A stretch of 64,000 bases of DNA from an uncultured Acetobacteraceae bacterium (GCA_964242595.1 CAXTBC010000005.1:14126-78125); one strand, 5' to 3'; numbered from the stretch's first letter, positions 257-62,099 are shown. Numbers and translations are program-made. The notes: generated by a model from the letters alone, not told the origin.

Positions 257-406
257 CAAGAACTTCTTTTTTGAAAAAAAGAAGCAAAAAACTTTTGTCC
301 CTGCGCTGTGCCGACAACCTCGATTCTTCCTGCAGCACCCGGCTGTCTCAGATGCGGGAAACAAAAGTTTTTTGGTCCTTTTCTTCAAAAAAGGACCGCT
401 TGCTTT
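257..406. repeat. Family A palindromic repeat, full (two inverted hairpin halves)
   Basis: CTTCTTTTTTGAAAAAAAGAAG-CAAAAAACTTTT ... AAAAGTTTTTT-GGTCCTTTTCTTCAAAAAAGGACC. Confidence 0.9.
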
Positions 407-485
407 GCATGGGTCAGCCCCGACGCAACCTTGAGCCCCAAGGCCTCAGTCAGACTTGGGACAGAACACCCCCTTGGCCAAGCGC

Positions 486-1901
486 ATGACCGCCCCCCAA
501 CCGTCCACCCGCCACGCCGAACTCGGCCCCGAGTTCTATGACTTGGTCAGCCCCGCATCCTTCCCGCGCCATGTCCTTCGCTACCGCAACCAGGCCTGGG
601 CGGCGCGCGTGGGCCTGGACGGGCTGGACGAGGCCGCGTGGCTGAACCTTTTCGGCCGCTTCGACCCGCTGCCCGGCAGCTTCCCGCAGCCGCTCGCCCT
701 GCGCTACCACGGCCACCAGTTCCGCTCCTACAACCCCGAGTTGGGGGACGGTCGTGGCTTCCTCTTCGCCCAGCTGCATGACCTGCAGGACGGCCGGCTG
801 CTGGATCTCGGCACCAAGGGGTCCGGCACCACGCCCTGGTCGCGCTCGGCCGATGGCCGTCTGACGCTGAAGGGCGGCGTGCGTGAGGTGCTGGCCACCG
901 CCATGCTCGAAGCCCTCGGCGTCTACACCTCCAAGTCGTTCAGCCTGGTCGAGACCGGCGAAGACTTGGTGCGCGGCGACGAGCCTTCGCCGACGCGTAG
1001 CGCCGTGCTCGTCCGCCTCAGCCACACCCACATCAGGATCGGCACGTTCCAGCGCCTGGCCTACCTGCAGGACTTGGCCTCGCTACGCCGCCTCGTGGAC
1101 CACGCCATCGCCGTGGCCATCCCGGAAGCCCGCCGGGACGACCCCGCCGAACAGACCGCCGCGTTCCTGGGTGCCGTCTGCGCCCGCACGGCGCGGCTGG
1201 GTGCGGAGTGGATGGTCGCCGGCTTCGTGCACGGCGTGCTTAACACGGACAACATCAACATCACCGGGGAAAGTTTCGACTACGGCCCGTGGCGCTTCGT
1301 GCCCACCTACGACCCTGGCTTCACGGCCGCCTATTTCGACCACGCCGGCCTGTACGCCTACGGTCGCCAGCCGGACACGCTTCTGTGGAACCTGGTGCGC
1401 CTGGCCGAGAGCCTGCTCGCCTTGACCCCACAAGCAGCGCTGGAGCAGGAACTGGCCACCTTCGTGCCGGCCTTCCGAACGGCGCTTGCCGCCGGCGTGC
1501 TGCGCCGCCTCGGCCTGGCTGCCCGCCTGCCGGAGCAGGACGCTGCCGTGTCGGAGGCGTTCTGGGCCTTCCTCGCCGAAAGCCAGGTGGGCTTCGAGCA
1601 GGCCTTCTTCGACTGGTTTGGCGGCCTGGCCAGTCAGCACCGCGCGCGTTCCGGCCCCGCCGCCGCGTCCTACGCCGGGCCGGCGTTCGAGGCCTTTTTG
1701 CAGGAGTTGCAGGGTTGCGAGGTGGCCGATTCCGCTCGCCCGGACCGCCCGTATTTCAAACGGCCAACGCCCTGCACCATGCTGATCGAGGAGGTGGAGC
1801 GCATCTGGGCGCCGATCGCCGCGGAGGACGACTGGTCGGTGTTCCACGCGAAGATGGCGGCCATCGCCGAGATGGCGGAGGCTTACCGGGGCGGCTTCTA
1901 A
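486..1901 (+). CDS. selO: Protein adenylyltransferase SelO/YdiU family
   Basis: Motifs GHQF...LGDGRG, KGSG.TPWSR.ADGRL, HGVLNTDN, FDYGP; start at ATG 486 chosen. Confidence 0.92.
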   Translation: MTAPQPSTRHAELGPEFYDLVSPASFPRHVLRYRNQAWAARVGLDGLDEAAWLNLFGRFDPLPGSFPQPLALRYHGHQFRSYNPELGDGRGFLFAQLHDLQDGRLLDLGTKGSGTTPWSRSADGRLTLKGGVREVLATAMLEALGVYTSKSFSLVETGEDLVRGDEPSPTRSAVLVRLSHTHIRIGTFQRLAYLQDLASLRRLVDHAIAVAIPEARRDDPAEQTAAFLGAVCARTARLGAEWMVAGFVHGVLNTDNINITGESFDYGPWRFVPTYDPGFTAAYFDHAGLYAYGRQPDTLLWNLVRLAESLLALTPQAALEQELATFVPAFRTALAAGVLRRLGLAARLPEQDAAVSEAFWAFLAESQVGFEQAFFDWFGGLASQHRARSGPAAASYAGPAFEAFLQELQGCEVADSARPDRPYFKRPTPCTMLIEEVERIWAPIAAEDDWSVFHAKMAAIAEMAEAYRGGF

Positions 1902-1904
1902 CGC

Positions 1905-2135
1905 CAGCATGCGGCTTTGCCCGAACCCCGCCTTGCGCAGCACGCATTTGCGTGACGGGCCTCGAGGCCCAGACTCCCGTTCATTGGTGGTGTCGTACCA
2001 GGTCCGGGGAATATATCTTCGATGCCCGCTCGAAATTGCCTCGGCTAAACAGATGGGGGTGCGGAGCCTGGACGCCTGTGACGCGAATGCGTGCTGCGCA
2101 CGACCGTGTTTGGGGCAGAGCCCCATGTTTGCCTT
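1905..2135. repeat. Family B palindromic repeat, extended (two inverted type-1 halves around a unique spacer)
   Basis: Degenerate GCATGCGGCTTTGCCCGAACCCCG...GGGCCTCGAGGCCC on the left; inverse ...TTTGGGGCAGAGCCCCATGTTTGCCTTAAG on the right; both halves carry an extra GCGCAGCACGCATT(T/C)GCGT insert. Confidence 0.8.
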
Positions 2136-2303
2136 AAGCTCAAGCCGCAACAAATCCTTCAGCCACTGGCAGCTTGCGCCCGAACTCCCGCCGCAGCAGC
2201 AGCAACCTCAGCGTCGCCTGACCGATAGAGCCGCGTGTGAGGTCGGTCATGTGAAACTCCGCCACTTTGCGCGCATCAAAGGACAGAACCGCGACAGCAC
2301 AGA

Positions 2304-2345
2304 CAAAAGCTTTTTGCTTCTTTTTCTCGAAAGAAGGCCTTCCTT
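2304..2345. repeat. Family A repeat, half copy
   Basis: AAAAGCTTTTTGCTTCTTTTTCTCGAAAGAAGGCCTTCCTT. Confidence 0.85.
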
Positions 2346-60950: not shown

Positions 60951-60982
60951 TGGCGACCCAGCACTTCTTGCAGGAACTCAAC

Positions 60983-61387
60983 ATGTCTGACAACGCCCTG
61001 CCAATCCAGAAAACCGACGCCGAGTGGAAGCGAGATCTCACCCCCGAGCAGTACCGCGTGCTCCGCGAGCACGGTACGGAACGCCCCGGCGCGAGCAGCC
61101 TGAATGCCGAGAAGCGCGAGGGCGAGTTCCTCTGCGCCGCCTGCCAGTCCAAGCTGTTCGACAGTGCAACGAAATACGAGAGCCACTCCGGCTGGCCCAG
61201 CTTCTACGCGCCCGTGGACGGCGCCGTCGCTACCACCGAGGACCGCTCGCTTGGCATGCGCCGGGTGGAGGTTCATTGCGCACAGTGCGGCGGCCACCTG
61301 GGCCACGTTTTTCCGGACGGGCCCAAGCCCACCGGCCAGCGCTACTGCATGAACGGCGCGGCGCTCAAGTTCGAACCCGCCGGCTGA
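60983..61387 (+). CDS. msrB: Peptide-methionine (R)-S-oxide reductase
   Basis: GTERP, CAAC, KYESHSGWPSFY, RVEVHCAQCGGHLGHVFPDGP, RYCMN. Confidence 0.97.
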   Translation: MSDNALPIQKTDAEWKRDLTPEQYRVLREHGTERPGASSLNAEKREGEFLCAACQSKLFDSATKYESHSGWPSFYAPVDGAVATTEDRSLGMRRVEVHCAQCGGHLGHVFPDGPKPTGQRYCMNGAALKFEPAG

Positions 61388-61394
61388 GCCAGGC

Positions 61395-61856
61395 GTGCAG
61401 CACGACGCTGCCGAGCTGCTGCAGGAACTGCGCGCGCTGCTGGACGGGGAGACCGACCGGGTTGCGCGCACAGCCAACACGGCCGCGCTGATCTATAACC
61501 GGATGCCCCGCCTGAACTGGGCGGGCTTCTACTTCCTGCAGGGCGAGACCCTGGTACTCGGCCCGTTCCAAGGCTTGCCGGCCTGCACCCGCATTCCTCT
61601 GGGACGAGGCGTATGCGGCACCGCGGCCGCCGAACGCCGCACCATCGTTGTGGCCGACGTGCACGCGTTTCCCGGCCACATCGCCTGCGACAGCGCGTCG
61701 GCTTCAGAGATCGTCGTGCCGCTGGTGAGAGACGGCGTGGTTGTCGGGGTGCTGGACATCGACAGCCCTGAGCGGGACCGGTTCTCGGCGGAGGACCAGG
61801 CCCTGGTCGAGGGCGTGGCCCTGCTTTGTGTGGAGGATGGGAACACAGAGGGCTGA
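61395..61856 (+). CDS. msrC: GAF-domain free methionine-(R)-sulfoxide reductase
   Basis: NWAGFY, LGPFQGLPAC.RI..GRGVCG, HIACDSASASEIVVP, LDIDSP. Confidence 0.92.
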   Translation: MQHDAAELLQELRALLDGETDRVARTANTAALIYNRMPRLNWAGFYFLQGETLVLGPFQGLPACTRIPLGRGVCGTAAAERRTIVVADVHAFPGHIACDSASASEIVVPLVRDGVVVGVLDIDSPERDRFSAEDQALVEGVALLCVEDGNTEG

Positions 61857-61870
61857 AAGTCTTGATCTAC

Positions 61871-62099
61871 AGGCAAGAATGGGGCTCTGCCCTAAACCCC
61901 GCTGGGGCCTGAGGCCCCAGACCCATATATTTAGGATTCTTAACTGATCGATTCCTACTACCAATTGCCCGAAGCACTGCCTGCCGAGAAAGGCAAAAGG
62001 TAGAGCACGTGCTTAAACCTGCTGATGGGACTCCTAAACAGATGGGGGTCTGGGGCCTCGAGGCCCCCGCGGGGTTTGGGGCAGAGCCCCATGCTTGCT
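61871..62099. repeat. Family B repeat, extended (two inverted type-1 halves around an AT-richer spacer)
   Basis: AGGCAAGAATGGGGCTCTGCCCTAAACCCCGCTGGGGCCTGAGGCCCCAGACCC ... GGGGGTCTGGGGCCTCGAGGCCCCCGCGGGGTTTGGGGCAGAGCCCCATGCTTGCT. Confidence 0.9.

Follow-up and report, generated by a model that had tools for sequence, protein, structure and literature searches.

A 64,000-nt stretch of DNA from an uncultured Acetobacteraceae bacterium (contig C5:14126-78125, hereafter the window) contains copies of two families of intergenic repeats, here called A and B, and we found that two distinct tags lie at the ends of these repeats, each of them common to both families, whose bodies are unrelated. The host assembly (G000; other G-numbers denote congeners) comprises 3.77 Mb in 119 contigs, is 99% complete and has a GC content of approximately 67%. 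For one highly conserved protein of this genome, the nearest named relatives belong to the Acetobacteraceae (Rhodopila, Belnapia and Roseomonas), at 85-87% identity. The most economical reading, towards which we lean with modest confidence, is that the A and B ends are of common descent and are used by one machinery, given that the shared end motifs are specific, that the tags are outermost in most copies and that both families have the same architecture of a tag plus a hairpin. On this reading, A and B would be two repeat families, non-coding, non-autonomous and palindromic, whose four end modules (A1, A2, B1 and B2) are interchangeable, and their ends would be homologous by descent. A single trans-acting DNA machinery would handle both families, and would be neither a Y1 (IS200 or REP-associated tyrosine transposase, RAYT) nor a Y2 (IS91) transposase of the HUH class. 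It would recognise the tag at the base of a hairpin or long stem, in the way that the ends of repetitive extragenic palindromes (REPs) and bacterial interspersed mosaic elements (BIMEs), or those of miniature inverted-repeat transposable elements (MITEs), are recognised. Each family also has a minority long subfamily, in which the tag forms the inner part of a terminal inverted repeat of approximately 40 nt.

Two end tags common to two repeat families

The original prediction, made for this window, held that about 14 copies of A and 9 of B lie within the 64 kb and that both families end in the same two feet. The counts were reproduced (14 A loci and 9 B loci), and the feet are present either exactly where they had been placed or 4-8 nt away. 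The foot AGGCAAGCA occurs exactly at 20202, 32867, 46329 and, on the minus strand, 36562, with AGGCAAGAA at 61871, while the foot AGGAAGGCC occurs exactly at 4544, 8873, 28863, 55413 and, on the minus strand, 13246, with GGGAAGGCC at 43113. When up to one mismatch was allowed, AGGAAGGCC had 59 matches in the window versus 18.5 +/- 4.3 in shuffles, and AGGCAAGCA had 34 versus 19.1 +/- 4.1, both 9-mers lying above every dinucleotide-preserving shuffle of the window.

To build logos across the genome, ends were typed by their hairpin or body alone, with the foot ignored, and the bases upstream were then examined. The resulting upstream logos were AAGgAAGcAAGGCC ahead of TTC for A1 (n=518), aaaGaAAGCAAGCAG ahead of TTC for A2 (n=397), AAGCAAGCAT ahead of GGGG for B1 (n=302) and AGGAAGGCCA ahead of GGGG for B2 (n=190). 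A1 and B2 have the common tag ...AAGSAAGGCC (position-matrix r=0.91) and A2 and B1 the common tag ...AAGCAAGCA (r=0.93), in both cases in the correct register only; the correlation was 0.6 or lower in all other registers and in cross-type pairs. The 10-mer AAG[GC]AAGGCC is found 405 times in the genome, versus approximately 15 estimated from base composition, and about 85-90% of its occurrences continue into TTCTTT... (A) or A[AG]GGGCTC (B). No third family using this 10-mer was found in G000. The tag is also kept on A copies in at least eight congeners and on the B-like copies of G018, G002 and G004, which carry the GCAAGCAT tag as well.

A chance likeness of the feet is ruled out by the shuffles, the logos and the matrix correlations. 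Nor are the shared tags merely similar low-complexity tracts, since each of two specific variants is common to A and B, the ends behave as modules and the long forms discussed below have another 29 homologous nt in common. The claim that both families carry the same two specific end motifs thus holds genome-wide in the logos. The existence of two foot types also stood, whereas the feet themselves proved to be a degenerate period-4 tract, (AAGN)2-3, of ragged length. The difference between GCC and CAG feet belongs partly to the hairpin, the last base being part of the closing base pair.

Genome totals are approximately 925-1,125 A half-units and 500-620 B ends in the 3.77 Mb, in intergenic positions; these numbers are lower bounds, because the repeats, and the B copies in particular, are a main cause of breaks in the assembly. 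Many contigs of G000 start or stop within family B copies (e.g., C8:26, C10:90, C16:99, C20:2, C24:219 and C45:19). In each of the four modules a purine tag, of the form (AAGN)2-3 ending in GCC or CA(G/T), is directly followed by a hairpin. An A half has four parts: the tag, an AT-rich hairpin of 10 bp (TTCTTTTTT-GA-AAAAAAGAA), a second, small palindrome (CAAAA-N3-TTTTG) and a spacer rich in GC. The closing pair of the hairpin distinguishes A1 (C...G after GCC) from A2 (G...C after CAG or CGG), and its correlation with the tag is strict (e.g., 415 GCC in type 1). Among 925 typed A halves there are 277 doublets, 251 of them heterotypic (A1+A2) and 26 homotypic, and approximately 40% of the halves are solo. 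Family B forms a unit of approximately 135-155 bp running from B2 to B1, and both B2...B1 doublets and solo B ends occur.

Whole elements are non-coding, imperfect palindromes of 110-155 bp, and A and B each fold into one long stem with the feet paired at its base (z -5.6 to -10.2). Unit-length A/B chimeras, in which one end is an A half and the opposite end a B half, are present in G000 (C99:6186, C26:22846 and C20:2473), and the congener G004 contains both a chimera downstream of nusG and a mini-element made up of a tag, one hairpin and an inverted tag. Judging from the solo units, heterotypic doublets, chimeras and mini-element, the unit that moves or recombines looks like a tag plus a hairpin, by analogy with REP/BIME.

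Element boundaries, orthologous sites and distribution

The feet are the outermost conserved bases in most copies, as had been proposed. In short B copies the median interior identity to the consensus is 0.96, versus a random level of 0.27 for the 35 nt outside the tag, and the A logos are flat beyond position -14. Most copies are short (74-81% of B ends and almost all A copies), and for these the boundary of conservation agrees with the further claim that the feet define the element junctions. The claim does not extend to the long subfamilies of A and B, in which the junction lies approximately 30 nt outside the foot, at the termini TAC...GTA.

By strict criteria, approximately 8-11% of B ends belong to the long form (B-long), in which a 29-nt extension, TA(C/T)(C/T)AACGGCC-N8-TTGACCTnT, lies outside the tag and TAA or TTA flanks the element on both sides. 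An empty site is available within G000: one copy is nested in another B copy as CCCGC-TAA-[element]-TAA-GGACAAGT, and the paralogous empty site in other B copies, GCTAA directly followed by GGAC, matches this insertion. In their mobility, B-long copies resemble DDE-type MITEs, making a TAA/TTA duplication of 3 bp. They are also the most homogeneous of the B copies and for that reason look like a young derivative rather than an ancestor. A subtype of A, A-gamma, has an extension that is homologous to that of B-long and of equal length (29 nt), reading TACCAGCCCGCGTTGAGRCTGACnCAT-NN-tag. The terminal inverted repeat of the long forms, approximately 40 nt, is made up of TACCARC, five GC-rich bases, seven bases, TGACYnAT, two bases and the tag. 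A search for an "empty" carrier MITE consisting of the two outer extensions alone found none.

For the short A forms, the 277 doublets showed no target duplication above a shuffled-partner null at any offset or diagonal band, T.A and TA included. A universal TA/TNA target for these forms was likewise rejected, there being no matched direct repeat. The outer boundary of A does have a T in 55% of cases versus approximately 32% expected (68% in gene-3' flanks and 42% elsewhere), an enrichment that is mostly due to the stop codons of adjacent genes. The idea that short forms insert at the centre of palindromic targets was rejected as well, as the flanks are only marginally inverted-repeat-like, and this owing to the long subfamily.

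Family A was detected in all 18 congeners first sampled, with 6 to 2,312 hits per genome (G008 2,312, G001 1,432, G018 1,387, G016 1,301, G013 32, G015 31, G009 7 and G005 6), and was not detected in any of 12 genomes belonging to other families of the class. High copy numbers of family B are limited to G000 (256 hits) and G006 (69). Both families are absent from 80 other proteobacterial (mostly alphaproteobacterial) loci, and the A/B repeats are restricted to one genus. A literature search with the core sequences of A and B returned nothing relevant.

Three orthologous sites were compared in congeners, in which the genes are 70-90% identical. The site corresponding to the A doublet at 34335-34470, between an unnamed upstream gene and a comF-like gene, is empty in six congeners, and holds the left half of the element in two, the right half in one, a mini-element in one and the full doublet in two. 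At its orthologue in G011 there is a tag-like AAGGAAAGCAG followed by a different GC hairpin (GCAGGCATTGCCTGC), which may be a further module type in another species.

The site 3' of nusG (20198-20333 in the window) was compared with its orthologues in 19 congeners. An A-type element whose tag is fused to the TAA or TAG stop codon is found there in seven genomes, one of the seven elements being an A/B chimera. In G012, an A half with a degenerate foot lies approximately 20 nt after the TGA stop codon, and in G006 a different small MITE directly follows the TGA stop codon, and an A half lies beyond it downstream. The other genomes lack any A or B copy near the stop codon, which is TGA or TAG, and at least three element-free genomes (G011, G013 and G015) have a GC-rich hairpin after it. 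The elements at this site vary among genomes in both orientation and type, which suggests that elements arrived repeatedly and independently 3' of nusG.

At the third site, 28862-29025, the same divergent intergenic locus holds a B body in G000 and an A-gamma body in G007 (C123). The right-hand end of both elements reads ...G(C/G)GTTGGTA, and the flanks beyond it are similar, so the two appear to have the same right-hand extension and flank. The bodies may have been swapped between shared ends, or the two elements may have inserted independently at one site. Taken across the sites, these comparisons indicate that modules have been gained, lost and exchanged repeatedly at the same intergenic positions.

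Candidate enzymes and competing explanations

The original prediction had pointed to an enzyme of the HUH family, of the RAYT/TnpA-REP class, and had expected a HUH gene flanked by A or B copies. Neither expectation was borne out: no such flanked gene was found in G000 or at the Y1 and Y2 loci of congeners. There is no six-frame match to the Y1 transposase (RAYT/IS200, PF01797) in G000, and this family is absent from 24 of 26 congeners, including the complete, single-contig genome of G008 with its 2,312 A hits. Neither of the two weak matches among the 26 congeners (34.5 and 24.9 bits) lies closer than approximately 1.5 kb to an A, B or tag motif. The Y2 transposase (PF04986) is present in 4 of 26 congeners and absent from G000 and the A-richest genome, G008, and its loci in congeners have no A, B or tag. 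The repeats differ in this from IS91/ISCR elements (Y2 HUH, with ends by a GAAC/CAAG target).

The IS5-type transposase (PF13586) is present in 16 of 26 genomes; four genomes that each have over 1,000 A hits lack it. One intact insertion sequence (IS) of the IS5 family was found in G000, outside the window (C17:24138-25024, approximately 890 bp, with a 276-aa DDE_Tnp_1_2 open reading frame, or ORF). Its termini are GAGGCTGTTTGAAAACTC / GAGTCCGTTTGAAAACTC (also given as GAGKCYGTTTGAAAACTC), and are unrelated to the tag and to the TACCAAC extension; its target duplication is TTA. This IS is inserted in a family B copy between CCTTA and GAAC, and many B copies contain, nested at the identical CCTTAG site, a MITE of approximately 150 bp that derives from this IS (e.g., C1:48215-48365), which makes B a preferred landing site.

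Several points weigh against common descent of the ends and a common machinery. Gene conversion, or selection on a functional tag, could keep the tags alike. The exact junctions of the short forms are placed by the boundary of conservation, and not by empty-versus-filled sites, and the orthologous sites in congeners show many states and no nucleotide-exact junctions. Profile and terminus searches yielded no enzyme for A and B. The presence of the IS5-type transposase does not follow A copy number, and the two are uncorrelated. Self-BLAST of the G000 assembly revealed no multi-copy IS longer than 650 bp, and terminus searches of G000 found no autonomous element with the tag or a TACCAAC terminus, the other genomes of the genus having been searched for autonomous partners by Pfam family only.

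In architecture, the closest analogue of A and B is REP/BIME. As in the REPs, BIMEs and REP doublets forming hairpins (REPINs) of Enterobacteria, Pseudomonas, Stenotrophomonas and others, all four modules have a conserved 5' tag followed by an imperfect hairpin, and they are found singly or as inverted doublets, the latter folding into long hairpins. They are extragenic and lineage-specific, are sited close to stop codons, reach hundreds to thousands of copies and (as tested for A) make no target duplication. BIMEs of E. coli pair the Y and Z types of REP, which the heterotypic A doublets resemble. These likenesses favour a classical REP/REPIN system, in which a RAYT (Y1 HUH) or other HUH enzyme would read the tag and hairpin and disperse both families, but the analogy fails on the defining RAYT, given the absence of Y1 and Y2 genes from G000 and most congeners described above. 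Moreover, instead of GTAG or CGTC the tag is a purine-rich, period-4 tract, (AAGS)n, of 7-14 nt, the A hairpin is rich in AT although the genome has 67% GC, the tag is common to two sets of hairpins that are structurally unrelated, and the units are longer (approximately 45-60 nt per half and 110-155 nt per doublet). We therefore regard this explanation as very improbable and already largely refuted. A REP-like system independent of RAYTs is a possibility that we put forward tentatively. In such a system, a genus-specific enzyme beyond the Y1 and Y2 HUH families recognisable by Pfam would read a 7-10 nt period-4 purine tag (AAGSAAG plus GCC or CA) at the base of unrelated hairpins, and would copy or recombine modules of a tag plus a hairpin. 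This would yield solo units, heterotypic doublets and A/B chimeras without target duplication, and the modules would often land exactly at stop codons, where element-free congeners have GC-rich hairpins.

In behaviour, the closest analogue of the long subfamilies is a TNA-duplicating MITE. The repeats could accordingly be ordinary MITEs of one DDE lineage (IS5/Harbinger-like, with a TNA target), the tag being the inner part of a terminal inverted repeat of approximately 40 nt and the short copies being immobile derivatives of long ones that arose by truncation or by inside-out partial gene conversion. The homologous 29-nt extensions of long A and long B argue for this, as do the precise nested insertions of B-long and its 3-bp TAA/TTA duplications, a feature of IS5-family (IS1031/IS427-like) and PIF/Harbinger MITEs (TNA/TAA). 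Bacterial MITEs, too, make such short, A/T-rich target duplications, established here for B-long. An IS5-family IS duplicating TTA and its own MITE are active in G000, and B-long inserts into the same hairpin of B copies as they do. The locus with a B body in G000 and an A body in G007, seemingly with the same right-hand extension, fits as well, and conservation in the B1 logo fades gradually outwards (TGACC in approximately 26% of copies). Against it, the interiors of the predominant short copies are conserved as well as those of the long ones and their flanks are random, which simple decay does not predict, and the homogeneity of B-long makes it younger-looking and not ancestral. The B-long termini (TACCAAC...) are unlike those of the resident IS, the short forms lack both the outer termini and (as tested for A) the duplication, and the comparison fails further on the missing autonomous partner in G000, the missing "empty" extension pair and the lack of correlation between the IS5-type transposase and copy number. 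We consider this explanation rather unlikely. Similar limits apply to the Correia/NEMIS (Neisseria), ERIC/IRU and RUP MITEs, which A and B resemble as non-coding palindromes of 100-160 bp with terminal inverted repeats, inserted beside genes and (probably, for A and B) co-transcribed, with a transposase that is not known or is absent from the host genome. Correia elements even have alternative end types, alpha and beta, comparable to the GCC and CA tags. Correia elements, however, duplicate TA, whereas the abundant short A forms make no target duplication, the A and B halves occur alone and recombine into chimeras, and A and B share only approximately 10 nt of their termini, the rest being unrelated.

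The tag could also be a selected functional motif and not a mobility signal, with selection or gene conversion keeping the A and B tags alike. Candidate functions would be the C/U-rich tail of a hairpin terminator or of an mRNA-stabilising stem, a protein- or RNA-binding site, or a translation-coupling signal beside stop or start codons. Position relative to genes speaks for such a role: for 437 of 915 A halves, a high-GC3 ORF of at least 80 codons ends 70 nt or less outside the hairpin, with distance peaks at 8 and 12-14 nt, and the stop codon directly adjoins the purine tag in 209 of them (e.g., TAAGGCAAGCAG at 20200, 46327 and 55406). Family B is enriched in convergent gaps (40% versus a baseline of 18%) and depleted in divergent ones (6% versus 19%), each end when read outwards is a hairpin followed by CCUUSCUU, and at least three element-free congeners have a GC-rich hairpin after nusG instead. 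In E. coli, REPs within approximately 15 nt of a stop codon reportedly affect translation of the upstream gene (Liang, Rudd and Deutscher 2015). On the other side, the tail is U-poor for an intrinsic terminator, and a simple terminator scan gave no enrichment (13 found versus 10.9 expected), so that the intrinsic-terminator reading was rejected. Family A is found in every gene context (72% tandem, 16% convergent and 12% divergent), divergent promoter regions among them, and its orientation bias is weak (80 versus 56). Function alone also fails to explain why two tag variants are each common to A and B, or why there are approximately 1,500 dispersed copies. We judge function as the sole explanation improbable; it is compatible with a shared mobilisation system and does not exclude it.

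Copies in the window and their bearing on the genus

The 14 family A loci of the window consist of eight inverted doublets and six solo halves, and the nine family B loci are accompanied by one remnant at 191-220. Several of the A copies adjoin the stop codon of a gene. The doublet at 20198-20333 is directly 3' of nusG, whose TAA stop codon (20200-20202) is fused to the foot (TAAGGCAAGCAG), and its right foot abuts the stop codon of a convergent gene at 20328. A TAA stop codon at 46327-46329 is likewise fused to the foot (TAAGGCAAGCAG) of the solo A2 half at 46325-46402 (+), and the TAA stop codon (55406-55408) of a gene encoding 1,627 aa to that of the doublet at 55408-55540 (TAAGGCAAGGAAGGCC). 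The foot GGCAGGAAGGAAGGCC of the solo A1 half at 4539-4600 (+) begins directly after the TAG stop codon at 4531-4533, and the foot TAAGGAAGGCC of the solo A1 half at 2289-2351 (-) lies 8 nt past the stop codon of the gene at 2354-3616.

Several elements span the whole space from a stop or start codon to the next start codon. The doublet at 34335-34470 occupies the entire divergent gap from a start codon (CAT, approximately 34331-34333) to the ATG of the comF-like gene at 34475, and the doublet at 15955-16092 (A2 left, A1 right) spans the gap from a start codon (CAT, approximately 15942) to a stop codon (TTA, 16090-16092). Where A doublets fill gaps in this way (34335-34470, 15955-16092 and the G012 site), there is no room for a separate promoter or Shine-Dalgarno sequence, and the sequence ahead of the ATG is rich in CCTTSCTT. 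Elements are probably co-transcribed and fold into long stems, and their position is compatible with REP-like effects on mRNA or translation, any effect on expression being argued here by analogy.

The other A doublets are at 250-409, 23119-23272 (A2 left, A1 right), 39104-39242 (A1 left, A2 right) and 44243-44378 (A2 left, A1 right). The first of these is of the A-gamma subtype, with an A1 half at 250-294 (+), an A2 half at 365-409 (-) and traces of the outer extension (..GACTGACCGTTGCG / ..GGGTCAGCCCC). The last folds into a single long hairpin with the feet paired at its base (-57.6 kcal/mol, z -5.6 on the plus strand; -62.0 kcal/mol, z -7.1 on the minus strand). The remaining solo halves are an A1 half at 8868-8916 (+; foot AAGGAAGGAAGGCC), an A2 half with a variant hairpin at 27603-27674 (+) and a variant, A1-like half at 42225-42290 (-).

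Full B elements are present at 36434-36571 (B2 left, AAAGAAAGGCC; B1 right, GAGGCAAGCAT on the minus strand) and 43112-43249 (B2 left, AGGGAAGGCC; B1 right, GGGCAAAGCAT on the minus strand). The element at 28862-29025 has a short B2 end (foot CAGGAAGGCC at 28862) and a long B1 end, which reaches ..GGGCGTTGGTA at 29025 and is followed by TAA. A B-long element at 13091-13293 (outer coordinates approximate) has its B1 end at 13120-13149 (+) and its B2 end at 13226-13255 (-), with the 29-nt outer extension TA(C/T)(C/T)AACGGCC...TTGACCT.T preceding both feet. It lies next to a 570-aa ORF (11235-12947, minus strand) within a region of lower GC content (0.63-0.66) at 10000-14000, which may have been acquired horizontally. 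Partial B elements with a B1 end are found at 2045-2135 (-; foot AAGGCAAACAT) and 48109-48178 (-), the latter adjoining another small MITE, a MITE-like palindrome at approximately 47980-48110 with termini GAGTGCCTTTCGAAA.... The other loci are a B1 end with a truncated body at 32866-32990 (+; right boundary approximate; foot CAGGCAAGCAT), a solo B1 end at 59240-59300 (+) with the variant foot AAGACAAGGTT, and two inverted B1 ends at 61870-62101, with feet CAGGCAAGAAT (+) and GTAGCAAGCAT (-) and an unrelated centre. The only Rfam matches in the window are two tRNA genes (18096-18166 on the minus strand and 19301-19374 on the plus strand).

To our knowledge, the spread of REP-like and Correia/ERIC-like repeats is understood only in systems with a known RAYT or parent IS. 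The present genus has up to approximately 2,300 half-unit hits per genome, a diagnostic tag, four module types and chimeras, yet G000 and most congeners have no Y1 or Y2 HUH gene, so that it offers a clean system in which to look for another kind of mobilising or recombining activity. The range of copy number between congeners, from 6 to 2,312 hits, suits phylogenetic profiling. If the tag were indeed the inner part of an IS-derived inverted repeat, the repeats would instead be a case of ordinary MITE biology. Given that these elements take up whole intergenic regions, with stop codons fused to them and start codons at their edges, they probably influence termination, mRNA stability or translation in hundreds of genes.

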